A stretch of 33,091 nt of DNA from a virus (IMGVR_UViG_3300037424_003016:1-33091), one strand, 5' to 3'. Counted from the stretch's first letter, positions 4,176 to 20,189 are shown. Notes: a model not told the origin generated them from the letters alone. Made by a program: numbers and translations.

Positions 4176-4541
4176 ATGTTCGATTCAAATAAACTAAACA
4201 GAAGAGATAAACACATATTGAAAGCATTACTGTATTTCTATCCTAAAAAAAGAAGTGCAGCACAAATTTATGATTATGTATCAGGCTTTAATCAAAAGAC
4301 TGGACTAAAAAATGCCAAAGCATTAGGACATATCTTAATGATATTTCCAGTAAAAAGCGAACTTACAGTTTACAGAACTTATACTGATAAACGAATTACA
4401 GGAAGCAGATTTATTCGAATATATGTTCTTGAAGAATCCTTTGTAAAAAAATATTATAAAGAAAAAAATGGAATAATAAAACTGGGGAAACAGAACTCTG
4501 CAAAGTTGAATAAAAATGTCAGAAGCCGAAACAAAGAATAA
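4176..4541 (+). CDS. Basic hypothetical protein, possibly winged-helix
   Basis: GGAGGT RBS; K/R-rich helical N-terminus followed by a beta-hairpin-like C-terminus. Confidence 0.55.
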   Translation: MFDSNKLNRRDKHILKALLYFYPKKRSAAQIYDYVSGFNQKTGLKNAKALGHILMIFPVKSELTVYRTYTDKRITGSRFIRIYVLEESFVKKYYKEKNGIIKLGKQNSAKLNKNVRSRNKE

Positions 4542-6564
4542 ATCACTGATGGTCTTATCAGAAGTGAATGAAGGTGTTAGACAGACTTCAGTTACAGTGG
4601 ACTACTCTACTGTAAATTATTCTAAGCTTGAAACTATTTACAAGACAGAACAACTTATTTTTCAAGCAGTAAACATTATCAGTACATTTGCAGTTTCTAA
4701 AGGATACGATTATGTTGTCTCAGATAATTCTGAAGAAGAAATTGATATGAAAGAGATCATTCTTTCATTTGACAATAAAGTAGGATTACCTAAAATGATC
4801 ACAGACATTGTTCGTCATCTTCACATTTATGGAAATGCATATCTTGAAATTATTTATTCAAAGACAGATAACAAAAAGGTTGTTGGACTTGCACTTATTG
4901 ATCCCAAAACAATTACTTTCAAGAAAAAAGGAACAGGAGAGATTGATCTTGATGAATCAGGAAATATCAAAGGATATGTTCAAACTGTAAATGCCAAAAA
5001 GATTGATTTAGAACCTGAACAAGTAATTCATTTTAGAATAAATACAATTGCAGACTCATTAACAGGAACAGGAATAATTGAACCTCTTGTCAAGATTATT
5101 GAAGCTAAAAGAAATATTGAAGCAGGATTATCTGAAGCAATTTATAGACATGGCTTCCCACAATTTCATGTAAAGTTAGGAGATACAGAACATCAACCAA
5201 CAGGAGAACAAGTAACAGAAGAAAGTGAGAAATATAAACGTATTAATTCAAAATCTGAATTTGTAACTCCATATTATTATGATATAAAAGTTTTAGAATC
5301 GCCATCAATTAAAGGTGGAGAAAGTTACTTAAAATATTTCATAGACCAAATAGTAGCAGGAACAGGTGTTCCTCAAACAATACTCTTAGGAACAGGAGAG
5401 AACAGTAACAGAGCATCATCTTTTACTCAACAGCAAAATTTCTTTTTGTATATTTCTGCAGTTCAAACTTTAATTTCTGAAATATTATCAAAAGATTTAT
5501 TCACAAAAATATTGACAGTTGATGAATGTCCAGTATATATGAACTTTAATTCACTTGAAACAAAATCAGATCTTGAATTAGCACAAGAACGTGAAATCTA
5601 TCTTCGAAACGGTGTTTTAACTCCTGATGAAGTCAGGCAAGAGATGGGCTTAGAACCTATTTCTCAATCCCCCTATCTTCCTCAACCCATCACTGATGAT
5701 TCAGGAGCTTTTATTTTTTCAACCAATTTAGACGATCCTGAATTAAGAATTGAAGCTGAAGAAGATTTTGTATTTAATGCAAATGAAAATATGGAATTTG
5801 GTGGAATACTTCAAAATCTTTCAGAACCAATCAAATCAAGATTTATTCAAGACCAACAAATCTTATCTCATAAAATTGACAAGATTATGGATAAGTACAG
5901 AAATAAAATAGATAAAGAAATTGATTTAAATCTTACTTCAGATGATCAAGAACTTGCTGGAGAAAACATCTTTATTGATTCAGAATTACTTGCTCCTGAA
6001 AGAGATGCATTAATAGCTGCAATATTCTTAGATTCAAAGAAAAAATTCAAACAAGGAATTGCATTAGGAGAAGATTTCATCAAAAAACAATATCCCCAAG
6101 TTGCAGGAATAAAAGTCAAAAGCACAGTAAATGAAGGAGCTATCAAAGCTCTTGATCTTAGAGCCACTCAATTAGCAAAAACAGTTCATGGCGACTTACT
6201 TACTGCAACACAAATAGCAATAAGAGAAGGACTACAAGCTCGTAAAGGAGCAAGACAATTAAAAGAAGATATTGAGAAAGTCTTTGAAAAATATGGCGGG
6301 ACTTCTGGAAGATTCCAAAAGTTAGGAACAAGAGCAGAATTAATAGCAAGAACAGAATTACACCGTTCATTTATTGATGGCACATTACAAAGCTTCAAAG
6401 AACTTAAAGTTTCAAAAGTTGCTATGGTTGTAAATACAGGGGCTTGTGAGGAATGCATAGAATTATCTGCAGACCATCAAGAGATTCCATTACATTTATC
6501 TCAAGGAATAATCCCAATCCACCCAAGATGCAGATGTGGATGGGTTGCTTCTCAAGTGGATTAA
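4516..6564 (+). CDS. Portal protein fused to C-terminal MuF/SPP1 gp7-like head morphogenesis domain
   Basis: Portal motifs IYGNAYLEI, VIHFR, GVP..+LG, GVLTPDEVRQEMGLEP; MuF motifs RAELIARTE, ACEEC, HPRCRC. Confidence 0.9.
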   Translation: MSEAETKNKSLMVLSEVNEGVRQTSVTVDYSTVNYSKLETIYKTEQLIFQAVNIISTFAVSKGYDYVVSDNSEEEIDMKEIILSFDNKVGLPKMITDIVRHLHIYGNAYLEIIYSKTDNKKVVGLALIDPKTITFKKKGTGEIDLDESGNIKGYVQTVNAKKIDLEPEQVIHFRINTIADSLTGTGIIEPLVKIIEAKRNIEAGLSEAIYRHGFPQFHVKLGDTEHQPTGEQVTEESEKYKRINSKSEFVTPYYYDIKVLESPSIKGGESYLKYFIDQIVAGTGVPQTILLGTGENSNRASSFTQQQNFFLYISAVQTLISEILSKDLFTKILTVDECPVYMNFNSLETKSDLELAQEREIYLRNGVLTPDEVRQEMGLEPISQSPYLPQPITDDSGAFIFSTNLDDPELRIEAEEDFVFNANENMEFGGILQNLSEPIKSRFIQDQQILSHKIDKIMDKYRNKIDKEIDLNLTSDDQELAGENIFIDSELLAPERDALIAAIFLDSKKKFKQGIALGEDFIKKQYPQVAGIKVKSTVNEGAIKALDLRATQLAKTVHGDLLTATQIAIREGLQARKGARQLKEDIEKVFEKYGGTSGRFQKLGTRAELIARTELHRSFIDGTLQSFKELKVSKVAMVVNTGACEECIELSADHQEIPLHLSQGIIPIHPRCRCGWVASQVD

Positions 6565-6572
6565 AAATAAAA
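6561..6572 (-). terminator. U-rich archaeal-type terminator for the TR RNA
   Basis: Minus strand reads TTTTATTTTTAA immediately after the closing stem of the predicted RNA. Confidence 0.5.
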
Positions 6573-6574
6573 GG

Positions 6575-6828
6575 TGTCTCAGCTCACTTAGCCTGACTAT
6601 TCCGACAAACCGGCCATTATTGTTTAGATTATTGTTGCCGTTGAGACCGTTATAATTATTATTAAGGAACAGGACACGGCCCCAAGAGTAGCCATTTCAC
6701 TTTCTGAAAAGCCACCACCACTTCACACATTAGGTGTCGTGGTTGTATTTTATAACAGCTAGGCTGTCATAGTGAAACGACGTGTAGTTCCAAGCTACTT
6801 CATTGCTTTTAATAAAGCAGCTGAGACA
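6575..6828 (-). ncRNA. Predicted ~254-nt DGR template RNA
   Basis: No ORF in the track; contains TR; ends form a perfect 10-bp inverted repeat (TGTCTCAGCT 6575-6584 / AGCTGAGACA 6819-6828); several internal stems; TATA box upstream and U-tract downstream. Confidence 0.7.
6597..6682 (-). repeat. DGR template repeat (TR), 86 bp including IMH* (CGGAATAG)
   Basis: In target frame reads GRVLFL-NNNYNGLNGNNNLNNN-GRFVG with 11 AAY codons; aligns without gaps to 6916-7001 and 9818-9903. Confidence 0.97.
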
Positions 6829-6848
6829 AGGTAGATAAGAATATATCT

Positions 6849-6867
6849 TATATAAAAACGTTTTTAT
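6849..6867 (-). promoter_or_regulatory. TATA box (TTTATATA, 6856-6849) for the TR RNA, overlapped by a perfect 16-bp palindrome ATAAAAACGTTTTTAT (6852-6867)
   Basis: TATA lies ~21-28 nt upstream of the predicted RNA 5' end at ~6828, close to canonical archaeal spacing. Confidence 0.6.
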
Positions 6868-6903
6868 TTTCAGATTCTTTAGATGATTATTTTCGCGCGC
6901 TTG

Positions 6904-6916
6904 GCGCCTCCGGCGC
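6904..6916 (-). other. DGR target-recognition hairpin GCGCC-GGA-GGCGC 3' of VR1/IMH
   Basis: 5-bp GC stem with GGA loop directly after IMH; absent from the TR; identical copy after VR2. Confidence 0.8.
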
Positions 6917-7001
6917 TACCCCGACAAACCGGCCACCATAGTTCAGACTATAGTCGCCGTAGAGACCGTCCTAATCATCACCAAGGAACAGGACACGGCC
7001 C
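6916..7001 (-). repeat. DGR variable repeat VR1 with IMH (CGGGGTAG)
   Basis: 16 mismatches to TR by manual alignment; 15 are at TR adenines (2 of them in IMH) and one is the T>G creating TAG. Confidence 0.96.
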
Positions 7002-7785
7002 TGAGGAGTAACAGCATCACGACCACTAAAAGGATGATAACAACCTAAAGTATCATCAGAAGTGTCTTTTGCTCTTTCAAAGTATTCTTCTAAATTTTGC
7101 ATTCCTGCGTTTCTTGCCATCACTAATGGATTTGCTAAAAACTTCCCTTTTTTAACATAAGTAGATTCAGTATTCTGAGCTACTGAATAAGGCATTACAA
7201 TTCCAAACTGATGAGGCAAATCAGAAACTCCTTTCTTAATTTCATCATCAAAATGATATAACTTAATTCCAGATCCATCATGAAGTTTACCATCCAGTAA
7301 ATCATCAAACTCCTGATTTGTATATTTAGCACTACCGTTCATTAATCCTTCATCATAAGCTTGTTTAATACGTTTAGGAGTTAGTATTCCCCCTCCATTA
7401 ACTAAAACAAGAACAGGCTCATTAGCGGCATAGAATCTACCTTTTTGATCAATACCAATGTTTTCTTCAGTGTGAACAGTAAGCCAATTTTGATAAAAAT
7501 CATGATCATTTCCAGCTTTAACTTTAGCTGCAATAAGTTCAGGCATTGTAGCAACATAACCAGTACTTCCAGCATGTTCTAAAGCTTGTTGCAAAGCATC
7601 AGCAAGATTGCCATCATAAAACATCTTGCCTTTTAGTATATCATCAATATTAACGATACTTTGAGAAGTAACAGGTTGAGTTCTATTTGGATTATTAACA
7701 GGTTGTCTTACAGGTATTTCTTGTCCAGGAATCCAACCAGTAGCTTGAATGAATTTCTCCAAATCTTTATCAGGAATTATTCGAG

Positions 7786-9774
7786 TCATTTTGAAAGTAA
7801 CACCTCCAGTCCAGCTTGAAGCATTTTATCCTTATCGTGAACAGGATGATAAACAATATTAGGATCATTTCTTACTGCATTTCCTAGATCATAAGTTCCA
7901 CCAATTTCAAAAAGTACAACATGATTATTAGGATTACTTGCTATTTCTTTCATTTTCTTAGCTTCTCTTTGTGTTCGACCATCAATAACTAAACTACCGT
8001 CAGTTACAACAACATATGTTCTTTGCTGTCCATCACGATAATTTGTGATATTGATATCTTCTTCATCATAACCATTATTAGGCTTAAACAAAGCACTTAA
8101 AGGTCCTGTTTCTCCTTTCCAAAATTGATCAACAGTTACAATATCTGAACTTACTTGAGAATTACCAAAATTATGAATTCTCATTTTTGCTTGTTTACTG
8201 ACTTGTTTTTCTCCTTGATATAAAGCATCAACAAAACCATACATGACATGACTAAGCATATCCCATCTACTTCCGTCATTTACTTTATATCTGCCAGCAG
8301 TACCGCCAAACATACTTCCTGAACTGTCAAGATAAAACTCAACCATATCAGGAACATTCATATGAGCATCAACATAAACAATATCTTTAAGATCTCGCTC
8401 TTTTAATTCATATTCATTAAGTCGATAAGTGCCATTTCCTAAATCCATAAGCCATGGCAAACGAGTTTTCTTTTGTAAAGTACTGATTCTTCCAAGATTT
8501 ACTCTACTTAATTGGTCTTCTGTAAGGACGGTGCTCTTCTTTAGATTCCAATATTCTTGTTTTCCAACTACAACACTCTCGCCAAATTTTTTACCTCCAA
8601 GAATTTGAACCTTAGGATGATTTCGTTTGTAAAATTCATGTGTAGCTAAAACATCAAGATTTTTCATCTCATCAGCACTAGAATCTTTACTGCCAGGTTT
8701 TTTACTATCAACTTCATGGAGAAGTTGCATCTGAGATGCAGCCTGTTGTAAATCACCATCACTTTCTTGAGCTAAACCTTGAACGAATTGCTGTTGTTCA
8801 ACAGGTGTCATATCATCTAATAAATCTTGTAAAATATTTTGAGGTGAAGCACCGCTACCAGCACCTTGCATATCAGGTCTTCCTTGAGGCATTCCTTTCT
8901 GAACATAAGGACCTAATACAGCCATAAAACGTTCAATACCCTTATATCTATCATCTCCAGAAAAAACATCTCTAACAGCACTAACATAAGCTTGAACACG
9001 CTCATAAGTCTCTTGATTAGAATCACTTCCAAATAAAGATTTAGCTCTATCGACTAACGAAGCTCCTTTCGATTTAGGTAAATCAACAGATTGACCGATT
9101 AAACTGCCTAAAGCTTTCTCAGCAACAGCAACTCCTTCTTTGCCAGATTTACCTTCAAAGAAGCCATGGGTGCTTGCAGGACCGTACATAACTCCATACA
9201 AGAATCTTGTAACAGTATAAAAATTAGTTTCAGAAGGAGAATTTTGTAATTCTAACAAGTCCCAAGTAGGAATAATATCATCTCTAACATACTCTCCTTC
9301 TTTATTATCTAATGCAAAACGGTTATCTAAAATAAAATCTTTAACTCCATTTTGAGATGCTTGAACCTTAACTACTTGTTCAAGTGGACTAAGATTTGGT
9401 TCAGCTTTTACAACTCCACGCCTAATAGCTTGATGAATTAATTTATTATCATTGTTTTCTCCTTCCACACTAAACGGAGCTTCAATAGGATGATAAAGTT
9501 CATGATGTAATAAATAATGTAAAGTTTCTTTTGCTAATTCTTCAGGAGTCCCATCCCAATACTTAGCAACAACATCTTCAAACTTTTGAGCTAAATTATT
9601 ATCTTGAGAAATTTCTGCATAAATTCTTTTAAGATCAGTTGAAAATGTCCAGTCACGACCATTTTGTGCAACTCTTCGAATAACAGGGGTATCACTACGT
9701 AAAGGAAAGTCTCTCCTGACGTCATCACGCCAGTCACGTTCAGCTTCATTAAGAAGCAATTGCATATCTTTCAT
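7786..9774 (-). CDS. vWA-domain protein with N-terminal HExxH putative metallopeptidase domain (MoxR partner, DUF2201-like architecture)
   Basis: HHELYH motif in the N-terminal part; MIDAS DSSGS, later VVVTDG; Q/G-rich linker between the domains; ATGA overlap with target 1. Confidence 0.8.
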   Translation of the reverse strand: MKDMQLLLNEAERDWRDDVRRDFPLRSDTPVIRRVAQNGRDWTFSTDLKRIYAEISQDNNLAQKFEDVVAKYWDGTPEELAKETLHYLLHHELYHPIEAPFSVEGENNDNKLIHQAIRRGVVKAEPNLSPLEQVVKVQASQNGVKDFILDNRFALDNKEGEYVRDDIIPTWDLLELQNSPSETNFYTVTRFLYGVMYGPASTHGFFEGKSGKEGVAVAEKALGSLIGQSVDLPKSKGASLVDRAKSLFGSDSNQETYERVQAYVSAVRDVFSGDDRYKGIERFMAVLGPYVQKGMPQGRPDMQGAGSGASPQNILQDLLDDMTPVEQQQFVQGLAQESDGDLQQAASQMQLLHEVDSKKPGSKDSSADEMKNLDVLATHEFYKRNHPKVQILGGKKFGESVVVGKQEYWNLKKSTVLTEDQLSRVNLGRISTLQKKTRLPWLMDLGNGTYRLNEYELKERDLKDIVYVDAHMNVPDMVEFYLDSSGSMFGGTAGRYKVNDGSRWDMLSHVMYGFVDALYQGEKQVSKQAKMRIHNFGNSQVSSDIVTVDQFWKGETGPLSALFKPNNGYDEEDINITNYRDGQQRTYVVVTDGSLVIDGRTQREAKKMKEIASNPNNHVVLFEIGGTYDLGNAVRNDPNIVYHPVHDKDKMLQAGLEVLLSK

Positions 9775-9788
9775 TGTTTGAACCTTCT

Positions 9789-10712
9789 CTATTTTCGCGC
9801 GCTTGGCGCCTCCGGCGCTACCCCGACAAACCGGCCACCATTGTTTAGATAACCGTAGCCGCCGAGACCGTCATAACCACCATTAAGGAACAGGACACGG
9901 CCCTGAGGAGTACCAGCATCACGACCACTAAAAGGATGATAACAACCTAAGTCTCCATCAGATGCTTTTGCCATTTCATAGTATGGTTCTAAATTCTCAA
10001 TGCCTCCTGCTCGAGCAATTACTAAAGGATTTTCCATAAAATCTTTCTTTTGATGGTAACCTGACTTTGTTCCTTGAGCCATAGAATAAGGCATTACAAC
10101 ACCAAATCTATGAGGCAAATCAGAAACACCTTTCTTAATTTCATCATCAAAATGATATAATTTAATTGCAGATCCATCAGGAAGCTTACCATCTAGCAAA
10201 TCATCAAATTCTTGAGGTTCATATTTAGCACTATTACTAATTAATCCCTCATCATAAGCTTTCATAATTCTATCAGGAGTTAATATGCCTCCGCCATTAA
10301 CAACCACTAAAACAGGTTCATTTGTAGAATAAAATCTGCCTTTTGTATCAATACCTATATTTTCTTCAGTATGAACTGCATACCATTTTTGCCAAAAATC
10401 ATGACTTTTATCTGCTTTTAATTTAGTAGCAATAAGCTCAGGGATTGTAGCTACATAACCATTAGCTCCAACATAATCTAAAGCTTCTTGAAGAGCAACT
10501 GCTAAACCAATATAATAACCATCTTTCTTTTTTTCACTAAAAAAAGTCTTTCCCTTCAAAATATCATCAATATTAACGATACTTTGAGAAGTAATGGGCT
10601 GTGTTCTATTTGGATTATTAATAGGTTGTCTTACAGGTATTTCTTGTCCAGGAATCCAACCCGTAGCTTGAATGAATTTCTCCAAATCTTTATCAGGAAT
10701 TATTCGAGTCAT
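9789..10712 (-). CDS. DGR target protein 2 (C-type-lectin-like variable protein), intact
   Basis: C-terminal VR; YVATIPEL helix and terminal GRFVGV strand typical of DGR CLec-fold targets; paralog of 6887-7789. Confidence 0.9.
   Translation of the reverse strand: MTRIIPDKDLEKFIQATGWIPGQEIPVRQPINNPNRTQPITSQSIVNIDDILKGKTFFSEKKKDGYYIGLAVALQEALDYVGANGYVATIPELIATKLKADKSHDFWQKWYAVHTEENIGIDTKGRFYSTNEPVLVVVNGGGILTPDRIMKAYDEGLISNSAKYEPQEFDDLLDGKLPDGSAIKLYHFDDEIKKGVSDLPHRFGVVMPYSMAQGTKSGYHQKKDFMENPLVIARAGGIENLEPYYEMAKASDGDLGCYHPFSGRDAGTPQGRVLFLNGGYDGLGGYGYLNNGGRFVGVAPEAPSARK
9806..9818 (-). other. DGR target-recognition hairpin GCGCC-GGA-GGCGC 3' of VR2/IMH
   Basis: Identical to the hairpin at 6904-6916. 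Confidence 0.8.
9818..9903 (-). repeat. DGR variable repeat VR2 with IMH (CGGGGTAG)
   Basis: 15 mismatches to TR by manual alignment, all at TR adenines (2 in IMH). Confidence 0.97.
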
Positions 10713-10717
10713 TTTAT

Positions 10718-12307
10718 CTACCTCACAATAGAACCTAACCTGTGCTCATAGATACTGCTTTGTCCTTTTTTAGCTTGATAGATTTCTCCAAAAGCTTTTA
10801 TTGCGTCAGGTCCTTTTTCTTTTAGAGCAGAAGAAATATCTCCCTCATATGACCTACTAAAATGATCAAGCACTACAAGGTCAGCTAACACTCTTGATCT
10901 CATTGTTGCTTGAGCTGCACTTGTTGCTTGAGTATTAAGTTGAGACATATTATGTTGTAAAAAATTAAGATATTCCTTAAATCCATGTTCTTGACCAACT
11001 TTAATAGCCCCTTGCCATGCAGCTTGTCTTAATCCATATCCTTCAGGGATTCCAGCACCCTTATGCATATCGGCATAAGCTGATCTAGCATCATTTACAA
11101 GAGCCATTAAACTACCATAATCAGTACCTGTAATTGTTTTACTTTCTAAAATAACTCCAATTCCTGCAGTAACATCATTTAAACCAACAGATGCATCATA
11201 CGAACCATCTTTTACTCCTTTAATAAATCCAAGAAGTCGTGACAAATCTCTGATTTTTCTAAGATCACGTCTAACAAATCCATGCTTTAATTTACCTTGC
11301 GCATCAAGAATCTTTCTATAATTATTATCATCTCTAACTGAAAAATTTGGAGTAACACCTGCTTGTTGTAGTAATTCGATATTTCTTTCAAATGTTTGTT
11401 TAGGATCATAACCTACATAGCCAAGAGCTACATCAATAAATTCTCTTGTTTGACCGTCAAGTTGAGATGGGAATTGCTCAGGATCTGTTATAATTGGATA
11501 AACTTCTTTCCAATTACCTTTTACACCTGAACGTTTAGCAAATTCATTCCAAAACTGTTCATGTAAATCTCCTGCTAATGTTTTTTCTAACTGACTTGAT
11601 CCAGCTTCTGCAACTCCATTAGGAAATTTGAATTTTAAGAATCTGTTTTCTCCTGCGATATCAAGGTCAAGTGTTGCACTATGTTCTGCATCCGCAGGGT
11701 TCATAGCAGCTAAGATGGCAAGTCCTTTGTAACTGCCATCTTTTCCAGGAATAGGAAGACGTAAATATCCAGTATCTCCATTGACGTGTACTACGCCATC
11801 AACTACTTGAAATACTTCTTGACTATCTCCTCTGTTAATTTCATCAATAAATAATGCTCCGTATTTAGAACATTTTTCTTGGTCAATCCTTGTTTTTGGT
11901 ACTCCATTCTCTAAAGTGGTTTTAGTAAAAGGTTCAAGAGCGGAACTACCTAAAACTCCTCCGCTAAGTCTAAGAGTGTAATGACCATCAGGACCGAATA
12001 CTGCACTAAATAAGGCATCACTTGTGTACGTTTTTCCAACACCTGTTACACCTTCATAAAGCACGTGAAAATCATCAAAAAACATGGACGCAGTATCAAT
12101 ATCAAGTACTGTTACCTCGGTTGAATTTGGAGAAGGTAATCTTCCTTTTCCATTTAAGAATTTTACGTCAACATTATCTCCTTCTGTGATCTCCATATAA
12201 GGTGTAGGGGATACAACGCCATCAAGTGTGTCATACAAAGTTTGAACGAAATGTTTTCTCATTTCCTTATAATCTTTTTTTTCAGTTGCCATTTTGTACT
12301 TCTCCAT
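10718..12307 (-). CDS. MoxR-like AAA+ ATPase; probable start ATG 12292
   Basis: Walker A GVTGVGKT, Walker B LFIDEINR, sensor-1 AAMNP, arginine finger AGENRF. Confidence 0.88.
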   Translation of the reverse strand: MEKYKMATEKKDYKEMRKHFVQTLYDTLDGVVSPTPYMEITEGDNVDVKFLNGKGRLPSPNSTEVTVLDIDTASMFFDDFHVLYEGVTGVGKTYTSDALFSAVFGPDGHYTLRLSGGVLGSSALEPFTKTTLENGVPKTRIDQEKCSKYGALFIDEINRGDSQEVFQVVDGVVHVNGDTGYLRLPIPGKDGSYKGLAILAAMNPADAEHSATLDLDIAGENRFLKFKFPNGVAEAGSSQLEKTLAGDLHEQFWNEFAKRSGVKGNWKEVYPIITDPEQFPSQLDGQTREFIDVALGYVGYDPKQTFERNIELLQQAGVTPNFSVRDDNNYRKILDAQGKLKHGFVRRDLRKIRDLSRLLGFIKGVKDGSYDASVGLNDVTAGIGVILESKTITGTDYGSLMALVNDARSAYADMHKGAGIPEGYGLRQAAWQGAIKVGQEHGFKEYLNFLQHNMSQLNTQATSAAQATMRSRVLADLVVLDHFSRSYEGDISSALKEKGPDAIKAFGEIYQAKKGQSSIYEHRLGSIVR

Positions 12308-12434
12308 CTAGAATTTTTATTTTAATTTCAACAAGCATTTTAGGTCTAAGTTTATCTCTTAGGAAGGCTGGAATAATAATTATATTCTGAGCTCCTTGCT
12401 TGCTGATTTGTTTTGTTAGTGTAAATTCATTCAT
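12282..12434 (-). CDS. AbrB/SpoVT-like small DNA-binding protein (50 aa from ATG 12434)
   Basis: KQISKQGAQNIIIIPAFLRDKL...VEIKI swapped-hairpin pattern; GGTGA RBS upstream; overlaps the AAA+ start. Confidence 0.65.
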   Translation of the reverse strand: MNEFTLTKQISKQGAQNIIIIPAFLRDKLRPKMLVEIKIKILDGEVQNGN

Positions 12435-12489
12435 TATACGTTCACCATATAAATCACATAACATTTGTATGTTATCACTGTGAGGTAGA

Positions 12490-12534
12490 CACTACTACTA
12501 TTTAAATCTTTCTACTATTAGTCATTTAGTAGTG
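12490..12534 (-). promoter_or_regulatory. Candidate operon promoter: TATA-like TTTAAATA (12506-12499) flanked by inverted repeat CACTACTA / TAGTAGTG
   Basis: Seen in the intergenic region upstream of the AbrB-AAA-target-vWA-target operon. Confidence 0.4.
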
Positions 12535-12608
12535 GTTATAGTTTAATCGATTACTCCACCATTTATAAAGAAATAGCTAATTCTTTAAAAAGTTCTCCAA
12601 TATAAACA

Positions 12609-12803
12609 TTACTCAGTTATGGGAAATTTTTCAATAATTATGAACTCTTTATCACCTGATCTGACTGCACTAACTTGAACTTTGCTACCGCTCTTTAAAC
12701 CAATAGCTTTAGCTTCACGAGTGACCAAAACCCCAATTCCATTCCCGTAAGTATTCAACTGTTTTACAGATCTTTCGATGATTTCTTTTTTTGAATCAGT
12801 CAT
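12609..12803 (-). CDS. Second AbrB/SpoVT-like protein (64 aa from ATG 12803)
   Basis: KQLNTYGNGIGVLVTREAKAIGLKSGSKVQV...IIIEK matches the AbrB-fold pattern. Confidence 0.7.
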   Translation of the reverse strand: MTDSKKEIIERSVKQLNTYGNGIGVLVTREAKAIGLKSGSKVQVSAVRSGDKEFIIIEKFPITE

Positions 12804-12810
12804 ATATTGT

Positions 12811-12906
12811 ATAATACTGTATATAACTAATAAACACAGTATTATACTGTATATTACATATCCTTTGAACAAAGTTAATAAATAAATGTAAGATACTGTA
12901 TATTAC
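12811..12906. promoter_or_regulatory. Operator-like repeat array in the divergent promoter region between the AbrB-like gene and RT
   Basis: ATACTGTATAT at 12814, 12844 and 12893 (last two extend to ATACTGTATATTAC); inverted copy gives palindrome ACAGTAT-T-ATACTGT at 12836-12850. Confidence 0.6.
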
Positions 12907-12907
12907 T

Positions 12908-14584
12908 ATGGATGATAAAAAAGGCATTCTTGTAGAAATATATGATGAAGTTTGTTCATATGAAAATTTAGAGCTAGCATTTCAAAGAGCCAGAAGGGGA
13001 AAAACACTAAAGCAGTATGTGATTGATTTTGAAAAAGATTTAAAGGAAAATTTATTACAATTAAGATCAGAACTTCTTTTACATACATACGAACCAAGAC
13101 CATTAAAAACATTCATTCTACGAGATCCAAAAACAAGAAAAATTAGTAAATCCGCATTTAGAGACAGAGTCATTCATCATGCAATATATAACGTTATAGA
13201 ACCTGTTTTTGATAAGCGATTTGTTCATGATTCGTTTGCTAATAGAATTGGTAAAGGAACTCTTAATGCGATAAAACGATTTGATGTTTTCAAGAGAAAA
13301 GTATCTAAGAATAATACTATAAAATGTTATGTTCTTAAAGCAGATATTAAAAGTTATTTTGATACAGTTGATCATGAGATTTTAATAAAACTTCTATGTA
13401 AAAGAATTCATGATGGGAGATTAATGTGGCTAATTAGAATTATATTAAATAATCATCAAGGAAAAGTATCGAGTAAGGGGATGCCTTTAGGAAATCTAAC
13501 ATCTCAATTCTTTGCTAACTTGTATCTTAATGAGCTTGATCAATATGTTAAACAAAAACTCCGAGCAAAATATTATATAAGATATGTAGATGATTTTGTA
13601 ATCCTACATCAATCTAGAATTCAATTAGAAGAGTATAAGGAAAAGATAGACCAGTTTCTCAAAGAAAAATTAGAATTAAAATTACATCCATTTAAATCTC
13701 AAATTATAAAATTAGAAAAGGGAATTCCTTTCTTAGGAATTAGAGTCTTTTATCATCACAAACTTCTCGTTAAAAAGAATATGAGAAAATTTGAGAAAAA
13801 AATGGAAGTTATGAAAAAAGACTATCAATTGGAGAAAATAGAACGTGAAAAGGTAATGGAAAAATATGAGGGATGGATTGCCTACGCATCACATGCCAAT
13901 ACATACAAATATAGAAAACGAATGACTAGCAAATTAAATCATTCTTTCCCTGCTCAACCTGAAGTAAAAATTACTGCAGTAAAAAAACATGAGAATTTTC
14001 ATAAAAAAGTTGATCTGAGTAAAATTGATTTTACTCAACAAAAAACTTTACAATTAATTAATAGAGGAGTATCCATTGAAAACATCGCTAAACAAAGAAA
14101 CTTAAAGATTGGAACTGTGTGGGATCATATTGCGAATTTAGTAGAACAACATCAAGTACCTCTGAAAAAAATACTTTCTCCAAAGAAAGTCCATAAAATT
14201 TTATATGCAATAGAATCTCCAGAAGATAAACTCAAAGATATCAAACAAAGAATAAATGATGAATCAATAAGTTATAATGAAATTCAAGTTGTGTTGGCAA
14301 ACGTAAAAGCTAAACATAAGAAGAAAAGTATATCCTATTACGCTGAATGGTATCAACGAACAAATTGTTTTAGAAAATGCTATTACAATAAAGATCAAAG
14401 AAAGGAATGCAGAGTTAAATTTCAGCAATTAGTAGCAAAAGGATTGAATATGGATTTCTCAAAACATGATTTTCTGGATTTTTTCCATAATCACGTAAAT
14501 ATCTGTGTTCTACCTGAGAAAGATAAAAAAAGATTTATGTCTTGGGAAGAATTTAAGAAATCAATTAAAAGAAAGAAAAAATAA
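12908..14584 (+). CDS. DGR reverse transcriptase with C-terminal HTH (RecQ/YpbB HTH_40-like) and Cys-rich extension
   Basis: FRDRVIHHA, KADIKSYFDTVDH, GMPLGNLTSQ (DGR-type GxxxSQ), YIRYVDDF; extension TLQLINRGVSIENIAKQRNLKIGTVWDHI. Confidence 0.96.
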   Translation: MDDKKGILVEIYDEVCSYENLELAFQRARRGKTLKQYVIDFEKDLKENLLQLRSELLLHTYEPRPLKTFILRDPKTRKISKSAFRDRVIHHAIYNVIEPVFDKRFVHDSFANRIGKGTLNAIKRFDVFKRKVSKNNTIKCYVLKADIKSYFDTVDHEILIKLLCKRIHDGRLMWLIRIILNNHQGKVSSKGMPLGNLTSQFFANLYLNELDQYVKQKLRAKYYIRYVDDFVILHQSRIQLEEYKEKIDQFLKEKLELKLHPFKSQIIKLEKGIPFLGIRVFYHHKLLVKKNMRKFEKKMEVMKKDYQLEKIEREKVMEKYEGWIAYASHANTYKYRKRMTSKLNHSFPAQPEVKITAVKKHENFHKKVDLSKIDFTQQKTLQLINRGVSIENIAKQRNLKIGTVWDHIANLVEQHQVPLKKILSPKKVHKILYAIESPEDKLKDIKQRINDESISYNEIQVVLANVKAKHKKKSISYYAEWYQRTNCFRKCYYNKDQRKECRVKFQQLVAKGLNMDFSKHDFLDFFHNHVNICVLPEKDKKRFMSWEEFKKSIKRKKK

Positions 14585-14616
14585 GTTAATCTTAACCTTC
14601 TAATTCTTCTTTTCTA

Positions 14617-14650
14617 CTAAAATAATATTAAGAAAAAAACAGATTTCTAT
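14617..14650 (+). promoter_or_regulatory. 34-bp perfect repeat, copy 1; putative late promoter
   Basis: CTAAAATAATATTAAGAAAAAAACAGATTTCTAT ends 4 nt before ATG 14655; identical at 20156-20189. Confidence 0.7.
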
Positions 14651-16434: not shown

Positions 16435-17241
16435 ATGAAAACTATGCAAGAATTATTTTCAACACAAGATGTTGCACCTCTGATCAAAGAAGTGATTGAC
16501 TCCAATATATTCAAAGTCGCTGAAAGAGAAAGAGTAGGTAGACGAATTTTAAGAGTCATTACTTTGAGTGAAGGTTCAGCTCTAAAGATCCCGCGGATGG
16601 GGAAAGGTCAGGCTTATGTTGTTCCTGAACTCGGAGCAATACCTCAAGATGCTAGTAACTTTGATGATGTTGTAATTACACCTTACAAGATTGCCAAAGC
16701 ATTTACTATCTCAAAAGAAGCGATTGAGGATTCAGCTTTTGATGTTGTAAGACTTAAAGCTGACATTGCAGCTGAAGATGTAGCAAGAAAAGAAGATGAT
16801 GAAATTTTCAGACTCTTATCTCAGACTTCAAATTCAGTTAGTCCAAAGACTGCTGGAGAGTTTGTCCAGGAAGATGTGATAACATTAAGGAATGCTGTTA
16901 ATAAGAATAACTACAAGGCTAAATGGCTTGTAGCACACCCTGATGATATGGCTAAGTTGGAAAAAGACTTAATCAGTAAGGGTTACAAAGCTTTTGACAG
17001 GCTTGATGAAAATGGTATCATGGGTAACGTGGCAGGTCTTCAGCTATTGGAAACTACAGCTGTCGAATCTGGGACTATCCTTGCCTTAGATAGCAGAGCA
17101 GTCGTGCTGGTTGAAAGACGACCTCTAAGTACTGAGAACTTTAGCGATCCTTTACGGGACCTTGCAGCTGGAGTAACAATTACTGAGAGAGTTGCACCTG
17201 CAGTACTTGACGATTTAGCAGTCGCAAAGATGACCTTGTAG
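16435..17241 (+). CDS. Major capsid protein, HK97 fold (compact, 268 aa)
   Basis: VPELGAIP, PYKIAKAFTISKEAIEDS, LVAHPDD patterns; strong AGGAGGT RBS; position. Confidence 0.85.
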   Translation: MKTMQELFSTQDVAPLIKEVIDSNIFKVAERERVGRRILRVITLSEGSALKIPRMGKGQAYVVPELGAIPQDASNFDDVVITPYKIAKAFTISKEAIEDSAFDVVRLKADIAAEDVARKEDDEIFRLLSQTSNSVSPKTAGEFVQEDVITLRNAVNKNNYKAKWLVAHPDDMAKLEKDLISKGYKAFDRLDENGIMGNVAGLQLLETTAVESGTILALDSRAVVLVERRPLSTENFSDPLRDLAAGVTITERVAPAVLDDLAVAKMTL

Positions 17242-17289: not shown

Positions 17290-18027
17290 ATGGACTTAAT
17301 TACTGTAAAGAATGAAATAATTGTAGAATCAAACAAGTACAGATTAGGTCCTAGAGTGTTAAAACTTCAAAAGCTAAATGAAGGCTCAGCTACTAAAATA
17401 ACCAAGATAAGAAATGTTAATGGAGCAATAGTTCCTGAGTTAGGTTCTGCTCCTATTTCTCTTTTGGATATGGATTCTTTTTTTGTTTTTCCTTTAACAT
17501 TAAAAATGACAATTCTATTTCCTAACGAAGTCTTTGAGGATAATGATCTTGCTCAAATATTTCAGAAATCTCTTTTAGAGACTTATCATTTTGCATCTAT
17601 TGAGAATAAGTTAGTAGTTGAAGTTTTGATAGCAGGAGCAGGAAAGACTATTATTTCTGAGAGTAAGCCAAATGTTCGAGAGATTCCTATTCTTGATAAT
17701 TTTATTTCAGCAATAAGGTTTATTGAAGATAATAATTATCATCCTAATGTGATTTTGATTAATCCGTCAATTGCTGAAACATTAAGGCAAAGAGATGAAT
17801 TAAAAGAAAAGCTTGTTACTTATGCAATAGAAGTAATCATTGATAATTCTATACCTAAAGGGATGGTTATCATTCTTGATTCAAATCATGCAGGGTTGCT
17901 TGTTGAAAGAAAATCTCCTGAAGTTTCTGATTATGTAGATCATTGGAATCAACAAACAGGATTCTTAGTAAGATCAAGAATTGCTCCGATAGTTACTGAT
18001 GGAAATGCTGTGGTGGTGATCTCATAA
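17290..18027 (+). CDS. Second, divergent HK97-fold capsid protein paralog
   Basis: Colinear similarity to the MCP: LNEGSATKI/LSEGSALKI, VPELGSAP/VPELGAIP, NNYHPNVILINP/NNYKAKWLVAHP, LVERK/LVERR, RIAPIV/RVAPAV. Confidence 0.75.
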   Translation: MDLITVKNEIIVESNKYRLGPRVLKLQKLNEGSATKITKIRNVNGAIVPELGSAPISLLDMDSFFVFPLTLKMTILFPNEVFEDNDLAQIFQKSLLETYHFASIENKLVVEVLIAGAGKTIISESKPNVREIPILDNFISAIRFIEDNNYHPNVILINPSIAETLRQRDELKEKLVTYAIEVIIDNSIPKGMVIILDSNHAGLLVERKSPEVSDYVDHWNQQTGFLVRSRIAPIVTDGNAVVVIS

Positions 18028-19792: not shown

Positions 19793-20164
19793 ATGGAAAT
19801 CGGAGCAGAAGACTTCAATAAAATTGTAGACGTTGATATTGGCATTGATGTTTATTTAAGAAGAAAGACACAAACCATTGATCAAGATTATGGTAGTTTA
19901 ATCTCTGATTCTTATGAAGATTATAGTATAAAAGTTATTTGGGAAGAAGTTACAGGGGAAGAAGAAAACTTCAGACCTGAAGGAGAATTCAAAATAGGCG
20001 ATATAAAATGTTATGCTAAAGGTTTTTACAATGTTAATTTAATGCCTGTTCCAAAGTCAGATACTATAATAAAAGATTCGGTTGAATATAAGATTGTCAA
20101 GTCTACTGTCAAAAGAATTGGTAAGACAATAATCTATCGGCTTCTTCAATTACGGCTAAAATAA
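19793..20164 (+). CDS. Head closure protein (SPP1 gp16-like)
   Basis: Beta-rich 123-aa protein with D.I....EYKI pattern; position. Confidence 0.6.
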   Translation: MEIGAEDFNKIVDVDIGIDVYLRRKTQTIDQDYGSLISDSYEDYSIKVIWEEVTGEEENFRPEGEFKIGDIKCYAKGFYNVNLMPVPKSDTIIKDSVEYKIVKSTVKRIGKTIIYRLLQLRLK

Positions 20165-20189
20165 TATTAAGAAAAAAACAGATTTCTAT
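20156..20189 (+). promoter_or_regulatory. 34-bp perfect repeat, copy 2; putative late promoter
   Basis: Identical to 14617-14650; ends 3 nt before ATG 20193. Confidence 0.7.

Follow-up and report, generated by a model that had tools for sequence, protein, structure and literature searches.

A DGR cassette in a stretch of viral DNA encodes an RT that is fused at its C terminus to a conserved two-domain extension, an HTH_40 domain followed by a Cys4 domain, and RTs with this extension are accompanied by a characteristic short hairpin immediately next to the IMH of their targets. The element itself is of a known kind; the RT fusion is real and conserved, and its link to the target hairpin is undescribed in the literature searched. 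We give a probability of roughly 45% to the reading, predicted from sequence, that the extension reads this IMH-adjacent RGA hairpin, thereby docking the RT at the target. Target finding is the least understood step of the DGR cycle; the hairpin that follows the VR is known to be important, and within the literature searched no DGR protein is named as its reader. If true, this reading would offer the first protein handle on how DGRs find their targets.

The DGR cassette and its surroundings

The window, by which we mean the whole 33,091-nt stretch of DNA that was analysed (IMGVR_UViG_3300037424_003016:1-33091), is a provirus fragment with an estimated completeness of 33%. It includes virion genes for portal, capsid, tape-measure and tail proteins, together with a weak terminase match. 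The DGR cassette occupies 8 kb between the portal gene and a protease-like gene, and its features are as follows.

4516..6564, plus strand: portal gene, left flank of the cassette (Pfam scan)
6575..6584, minus strand: 10-nt segment downstream of the TR, exact complement of 6819-6828 at the RT-16 5' end (sequence pairing)
6597..6682, minus strand: template repeat (TR), on the strand opposite to the RT gene and 6.2 kb away from it
6683..6826, minus strand: Rfam RT-16 RNA, directly upstream of the TR (84.6 bits, E 4e-12)
6887..7789, minus strand: target gene 1, 272 aa after TAG truncation (300 aa in the 95%-identical cassette of L002)
6904..6916, minus strand: IMH-adjacent hairpin 1, with a 5-bp GC stem and a GGA triloop (sequence)
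6916..7001, minus strand: variable repeat 1 (VR1), 15/16 mismatches at TR adenines
7786..9774, minus strand: 662-aa gene with a DxSxS motif and without Pfam or NCBIfam match, which we take to be vWA-like
9789..10712, minus strand: target gene 2, 307 aa, AvpA-like (5ioo, E 9e-7)
9806..9818, minus strand: IMH-adjacent hairpin 2, identical to hairpin 1 (sequence)
9818..9903, minus strand: variable repeat 2 (VR2), 15/15 mismatches at TR adenines
10718..12307, minus strand: 529-aa gene with Walker A/B motifs and without Pfam or NCBIfam match, presumably AAA+
12282..12872, minus strand: two small ORFs of 60 and 87 aa, neither an Avd match, which by eye we take to be AbrB-like
12908..14584, plus strand: DGR RT with C-terminal extension, 558 aa, intact, YVDD, without a poly-G tract (ORF, Pfam, fold match)
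13979..14020, plus strand: predicted linker helix of the RT, aa 358-371 (model)
14033..14296, plus strand: HTH_40 domain (PF14493), aa 376-463 (Pfam)
14315..14581, plus strand: helical Cys4 domain (~85 aa), aa 470-558, likely Zn-binding through C487, C491, C501 and C533
14655..15572, plus strand: prohead-protease-like gene, right flank of the cassette (weak match)

The cassette is a genuine DGR, because the TR/VR mismatches are adenine-specific and the best fold match of the RT model is the BPP-1 DGR RT (8ub7, E 9e-17, 26% identity). RVT_1 covers aa 75-280 of the RT (Pfam, E 2.1e-27), which joins the DGR class in trees with phage DGR RTs as the outgroup. Both VRs sit at the 3' ends of their target genes (CLec-type fold, by the AvpA match of target 2), and the IMH/IMH* pair and the hairpin after the VR are present. 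As to ongoing mutagenic homing, a comparison of contigs shows that the VRs of the window differ from those of the related provirus L002 and that a contig from run X3 has other letters in VR1. The sole non-adenine difference between TR and VR1 creates a TAG stop at 6971-6973, inside the VR of target 1; this gene is intact in L002, and a run X3 contig differs at that codon.

On the RNA side, only tens of bases separate the TR end from a T-rich run. The exact complementarity of 6575-6584 and 6819-6828 suggests a duplex that likely closes the RT-16/TR RNA. Similar complementary ends are visible in most of 14 aligned RT-16/TR loci, and the 5' strand (6819-6828) is also part of the first RT-16 stem, such that two folds may compete.

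The host of the window provirus is likely a woesearchaeon, because a cassette 94.7% identical to that of the window occupies the same position in the Woesearchaeota provirus L002; the L001 stretch is identical to L002 but was binned as a bacterium. The virus genes of the two proviruses are only ~70% identical, and on this comparison the cassette likely travels between viruses as a unit. In several proviruses (window 6563-14570; L002, L012, L013), the cassette is flanked by a portal-sized gene of ~680 aa on one side and head genes on the other, and the block formed by target, vWA-like, target and AAA-like genes occurs in other contexts as well (L037, L050). By position, the targets are not tail-fibre genes.

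Several further observations concern the flanking virus genes. An exact 34-nt repeat lies upstream of two virion genes (14617-14650 and 20156-20189) and is also seen near the protease gene in L002; it is possibly a viral promoter element. Two capsid-like genes are adjacent, the first (16435-17241) matching Pfam Phage_capsid and the second (17290-18027) weakly matching a PHROG major head protein. One contig of run X3 joins 6545 to 14598 and skips the cassette, with just 23 letters on one side of the joint, and is given no weight here. RNA sequencing runs contain almost nothing of the window.

The RT extension, its spread and its likely origin

Beyond the thumb, the RT continues for 213 aa. The first-pass annotation had described a 558-aa RT with an HTH_40-like domain past the thumb, and this was borne out by a match to the whole PF14493 profile (1-89/89) with E 2.3e-20 and 73 bits against a cut-off of 27. 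The region is basic, with a pI of 9.4 for aa 372-466. For the tail, the same annotation had proposed a possible Zn site of the form C-x3-C...C...H.H...C, of which the cysteines stand and the histidines do not. The motif C487-x3-C491-x9-C501-x31-C533 is invariant in 52/52 full-length homologues, and the four cysteines are kept in 52, 53, 53 and 53 of 53 tail sequences, respectively. H527 is found in 7/53 and H529 in 33/53 tails, and this poor conservation rules out the H.H pair as metal ligands and leaves a Cys4 motif. The domain likely binds zinc, as judged from the third cysteine, which is a histidine in 4/17 stand-alone Cys4 homologues. Such Cys/His interchange at a ligand speaks for zinc rather than for disulfides or an iron-sulfur cluster.

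AlphaFold predicts a confident, helical extension (mean pLDDT 83, pTM 0.57), and the tail modelled by itself is also confidently helical (pLDDT 88). The HTH_40 part of the extension is clear by Pfam. In the structural comparison proposed in the first-pass annotation, the Cys4 part gave no Foldseek match at E<=0.001 and none at Z>=5 in the fold search, its best structural match being at Z 4.7 (rmsd 3.1, 66 aligned). No useful match to the tail was obtained in ESM Atlas, NCBIfam or PHROGs, and searches of PDB sequences with the module returned matches only at E>0.05 and no solved structure. The HRDC domain is absent among the 34 window proteins by Pfam scan.

The query spanning aa 345-558 retrieved 64 proteins, 63 of them with the extension (62 with RVT_1 + HTH_40) and one YpbB-like. 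A genome scan confirmed 88 stretches, of which 80 were kept, comprising 79 of archaeal type and one bacterial RecQ-like gene; most are labelled Woesearchaeota, Nanoarchaeota or Pacearchaeota, and some are labelled otherwise. Out of 273 RT loci, 27 were removed as too short or unclassifiable, and the other 246 were reduced to 204 at 90% identity. Of these 204 RTs, 87 have both HTH and tail, 31 have the HTH alone (in some cases because a contig end cuts them) and 86 have neither; the last set was drawn from best-scoring matches and is biased to intact genes. The module is kept in 118 non-redundant RTs, and 20/86 extension-less RTs terminate in a stub that resembles the linker helix. Neither the extension nor its stand-alone form was found in viral contigs, where the closest RT is 50% identical and extension-less. 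In the main text of the DGR literature searched, we found no description of this fusion, of the hairpin link, or of RT-16 in a DGR, and a subset of that literature makes no mention of HTH_40; Table S1/Data 4 of Wu 2018 may list such extensions.

The trees leave room for one or a few independent events. In FastTree the extension group forms one clade (118 rows, support 94). In IQ-TREE (57 of 214 rows) the stub-bearing extension-less clade is nested within the extension group (97/96 and 100/95), and the AU test (55 rows, without L049 and L091) does not reject a single extension clade (p 0.35). Along this history there were several losses of the tail and at least one of the entire extension, with TR/VR pairs kept. 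L049 is a recombinant in which an extension was grafted onto an extension-less RT core; an assembly chimera is unlikely there, as its extension is just 65-75% identical to that of the other RT in the same genome.

Searched against 1.84 billion representatives, a profile of the tail matched 46 proteins, among them free-standing forms of 85-130 aa and two HTH_40+Cys4 proteins of 203-205 aa. The 386 genomes of the phylum gave 34 tail matches, and ten of the best matches are stand-alone; the ten regions around them contain no RT and no RT-16/TR profile match (one region is without a called ORF). In two of the ten, the HTH_40+Cys4 gene overlaps a DEAD/Helicase_C/PF21210 helicase gene, which we take to be Hef-like. 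With a third such locus found besides, HTH_40+Cys4 genes overlap or abut the helicase gene in 3 loci, all belonging to one lineage with helicases 80-88% identical. A stand-alone HTH_40+Cys4 protein and the RT extension share 29% identity over 201 aa (E 5e-18). It is likely that the RT module was captured from a helicase-associated gene, in what we infer to be the direction of transfer. Genes for the Cys4 domain only (L450-L458; 94-154 aa, the domain without Pfam match) were observed in unrelated contexts, often next to HEPN/nucleotidyltransferase, AbiEii, Schlafen or Bro-N genes.

Two observations concern the RT genes of relatives. Poly-G (8-11) or (AG)n runs lie upstream of the GMPLGN motif, in one RT loop and often out of frame, for example in L003:9480-9500, L005, L027, L053, L060, L064, L068, L069, L075, L098 and L099, and RTs split at the same position are also found among class-wide matches. 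These runs, which the window RT lacks, look like an on/off slippage switch; Paul is said to have reported similar slippage runs in RT genes in 2017. In addition, a provirus-like region carries, at most 9 kb from an extension-bearing DGR, another RT that is truncated and comes with a TR/VR pair of its own (L013:19557-20447).

Target hairpins and the role of the module

TR/VR pairs were assigned in 74 extension-bearing and 69 extension-less loci, of which 70 and 61, respectively, could be anchored at the IMH. Under a relaxed rule, a 5-bp triloop hairpin starts 1-4 nt past the IMH in 66/70 extension-bearing versus 1/61 extension-less loci; under a strict rule that demands an [AG]GA loop, these counts are 62/70 versus 0/61. 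Loops in the extension group are GGA (61), AGA (22) and GAA (3), with a middle G in 83/86 hairpins. Extension-less VRs mostly have a hairpin farther away with a G-N-A loop (GAA 26, GTA 6 and GCA 3 of 81 VRs), and in 22/81 of them no hairpin was found. The stems of the extension group covary, with compensated pairs that change the encoded residues (APEA 59, ASET 8, AAEP 4, ATES 4, APEV 3). As a Glu codon begins at this fixed middle G, selection at the protein level is possible for this position.

Individual losses and gains mostly follow the same pattern. HTH-only RTs retain the hairpin in 15/17 loci. Where the extension has been lost (L269), the proximal stem contains two non-Watson-Crick pairs; where it is shortened and divergent (L091), only a distal GAA hairpin is seen; and in the stub-bearing extension-less clade, none of the anchored VRs has a proximal RGA hairpin. 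Two loci are discordant: L049 gained its extension by recombination and kept a distal hairpin, and L289 kept the HTH and lost the hairpin. The link between fusion and hairpin is sharp, but its basis is one to three deep events together with these single cases. Domain and hairpin type appear and fade together in more than 100 natural cassettes, and the extension-less sisters are ready controls.

The co-occurrence of the fusion and the proximal RGA hairpin is the ground for proposing that the module reads the hairpin. The idea that the extension may steer the RT towards the hairpin DNA of the VR had been raised in the first-pass annotation, and our counts favour it in the form of a correlation, over few independent events and between traits shared by descent (one gain and few losses at most). 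As we picture it, the RT-16 + TR RNA would support cDNA synthesis without Avd across the whole lineage, and the target hairpin would form on single-stranded or supercoiled DNA. While the target is single-stranded, e.g. on the lagging-strand template, the HTH_40 domain would grip the hairpin next to the IMH, and the module would keep the complex of RT, RNA and cDNA at the site that receives the mutated copy. Since tail-less RTs keep the hairpin, HTH_40 would be the reading head and the Cys4 domain an optional stabiliser. Such docking at the target might also explain how the RT gene tolerates separation from the RNA gene. For a reconstituted DGR, the orientation of the target relative to the replication fork is reported to matter, with the lagging-strand template favoured, and the stem-loop is thought to hold the DGR target open (both in the available text of PMC12875486). 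We found no demonstration in the literature searched that HTH_40 binds DNA hairpins.

A bolder version is distinctly less probable, and we regard it as rather unlikely: that the RT, with a module taken from a helicase partner, reads the RGA triloop base-specifically, providing orthogonal one-protein addressing without Avd or template linkage and the first DGR-encoded target-hairpin reader. Should the module indeed read the hairpin, a lone Avd-free RT that carries its own 13-nt address would also have appeal for targeted mutagenesis.

The strongest alternative, to which we assign a modest minority share, is that the module binds not the target DNA but the RT-16/TR RNA, capturing the template in trans from a separate transcript. 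The basic HTH_40 domain would suit such a role, and the BPP-1 RNA is wrapped around the thumb, with Avd bound to a stem-loop in the spacer that follows the TR (available text of bioRxiv 2023.10.23.563531). Template layout also fits: among loci with a placeable template, 39/89 extension-bearing versus 2/81 extension-less ones have it uncoupled from the RT gene, corresponding to 9 versus 2 parsimony changes on the tree (binomial p 0.013 by branch length). However, p rises to 0.09 once orphan RTs count as uncoupled, and the independent-pairs test is uninformative with only 3 pairs. RT-16 was found in 6/6 extension-bearing and 8/8 extension-less loci tested, with no extension-specific RNA feature discernible by eye in the 14-row alignment, and RNA capture leaves the hairpin switch unexplained. 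Cassettes with more than one target are about as frequent with the extension as without it (19/74 versus 18/69).

Somewhat less probable still is an adaptor role, in which the module would contact a fork helicase or single-strand-binding protein of the host and so bring the RT to replication forks. Its model is YpbB: ypbB overlaps recS, the two proteins associate stably, and YpbB reaches forks through SSB (available text of PMC3000357). The stand-alone genes that overlap or abut the helicase gene in 3 loci, and the dependence of DGR editing on replication direction (PMC12875486, in part), point the same way. Against this, the helicase-linked loci are a single close lineage, and an adaptor would not directly account for a new hairpin sequence at a constant spacing from the IMH.

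A little below it we place the idea that the fusion is a near-neutral passenger or a general processivity aid, with hairpin type and layout co-inherited with the RT lineage. A single origin is possible by the FastTree clade and the AU test, losses of the tail and of the whole extension left TR/VR pairs in place, and L049 and L289 are discordant. Two findings speak against a passenger: in many genomes the extension retains its invariant residues at 40-94% identity, and L269, L091 and the stub clade have either no such hairpin or a damaged one. On the condition set in the first-pass annotation, that the extension might be dispensable and unconserved in related RTs, the outcome is mixed: it is conserved in 63 protein clusters and dispensable for this DGR lineage overall. 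These three alternatives, RNA capture, fork adaptor and passenger, are not mutually exclusive.

Substitution of the fused domains for Avd in cDNA synthesis, also suggested in the first-pass annotation, is highly improbable. Its premise held, in that no avd is visible in the cassette, and the Avd profile searches it had recommended in the record and in a host genome found no linked avd. NF033474 gave 0 matches at E<=10 in the window record, a 33%-complete fragment, and a local Avd profile, which recovers Avd in 69/79 phage DGR loci, found none in the window or in any DPANN DGR loci scanned. Avd was likewise not found in G001, a genome with a cassette 95% identical to this one, and the extension is basic like Avd. 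Nevertheless, extension-less sisters lack Avd too, and these control loci are the ground for rejecting the substitution: among 39 loci with an RT ending 0-62 aa past the thumb, 34 have adenine-specific TR/VR pairs and 0 have Avd matches. No Avd match was obtained in 51 fetched loci or in 151 further loci, and Avd-less DGRs have already been described (available text of PMC5758913).

A sample of 401 genomes of the class gave a similar picture. This RT type is present in 91 of them and the extension in 18; the Avd profiles NF033474 and PF22296 matched 5/401 genomes each, above cut-off in 0/401 and 1/401, respectively. The lone genome above cut-off has a phage-like contig with its own avd-TR-RT, the RT being a distant one, and three weak Avd-profile matches that were scanned are 23S rRNA IVP proteins. 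Because the extension-less sisters with TR/VR pairs are also without Avd, the loss of Avd predates the fusion and exceeds it in extent. Avd-independence in these archaea is not explained by the fusion and points to the RT-16 RNA.

Equally improbable is a role of the HTH as transcription regulator of the cassette's own promoters: a palindrome, YACT-N4-AGTR, lies ~28 nt upstream of the TATA box in 22/27 target promoters of full-extension loci, but it is also found, exact or with at most 1 mismatch, at extension-less DGR targets (14/27) and at many non-DGR promoters, which speaks against the RT as its regulator and makes it resemble a host operator. The palindrome likely marks a host regulon. It is present in the window at 12470-12540 and in many related loci, and among 370 promoter-like sites of these archaea it was counted 46 times at -28 and 19 times at -27.

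Comparison with known systems

Among the closest known systems are the DUSEL4 Nanoarchaeota DGRs (Paul et al. 2015), here compared with the available text of PMC4372165. They share the RT lineage, a DUSEL4 locus (L312) being among the extension-less relatives, and they have an AvpA-like target (5ioo), the GGGGT/GGAAT IMH pair and a triloop hairpin within the target gene. That text notes GRA loops for the DUSEL4 hairpins without a split by extension and, in place of Avd, points out only small ORFs of Avd-like size and charge. Unlike DUSEL4, the window has an RT with the 213-aa extension, a hairpin that abuts the IMH and has an RGA loop, a TR on the opposite strand 6.2 kb off, and a cassette placed in a provirus between portal and protease.

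With the BPP-1 DGR (8ub7), the window shares the RT fold, adenine-specific TR-to-VR changes, and the IMH with its hairpin. In contrast to BPP-1, it has no Avd, a conserved RNA (RT-16) lies upstream of the TR, and the downstream spacer is tens of bases long; the BPP-1 bRT is without any such extension.

C-terminal extensions of up to ~150 aa, unexplained, are reported for about 20% of DGR RTs (PMC5758913, in part). The available text of that survey (Wu et al. 2018) names no HTH_40 or Cys4 extension, and 'helix-turn-helix' occurs 0 times in its main text. The HRDC-accessory and MutS-like-extension DGRs described there resemble the window in that a DNA-repair-type domain was recruited to a DGR. 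They differ in that HRDC is encoded by a separate, near-neutral gene, with avd present half the time, while the window module is an RT fusion.

Outside DGRs, there is a likeness to YpbB-RecS and to long RecQ proteins with HTH_40 at their end (Costes et al. 2010; available text of PMC3000357), which share HTH_40, and the stand-alone archaeal form of the module likewise adjoins an SF2 helicase gene. The YpbB-like protein P0065 is composed of RQC + HTH_40 and matches just 43% of the extension, whereas the window combines HTH_40 with a Cys4 domain on an RT.
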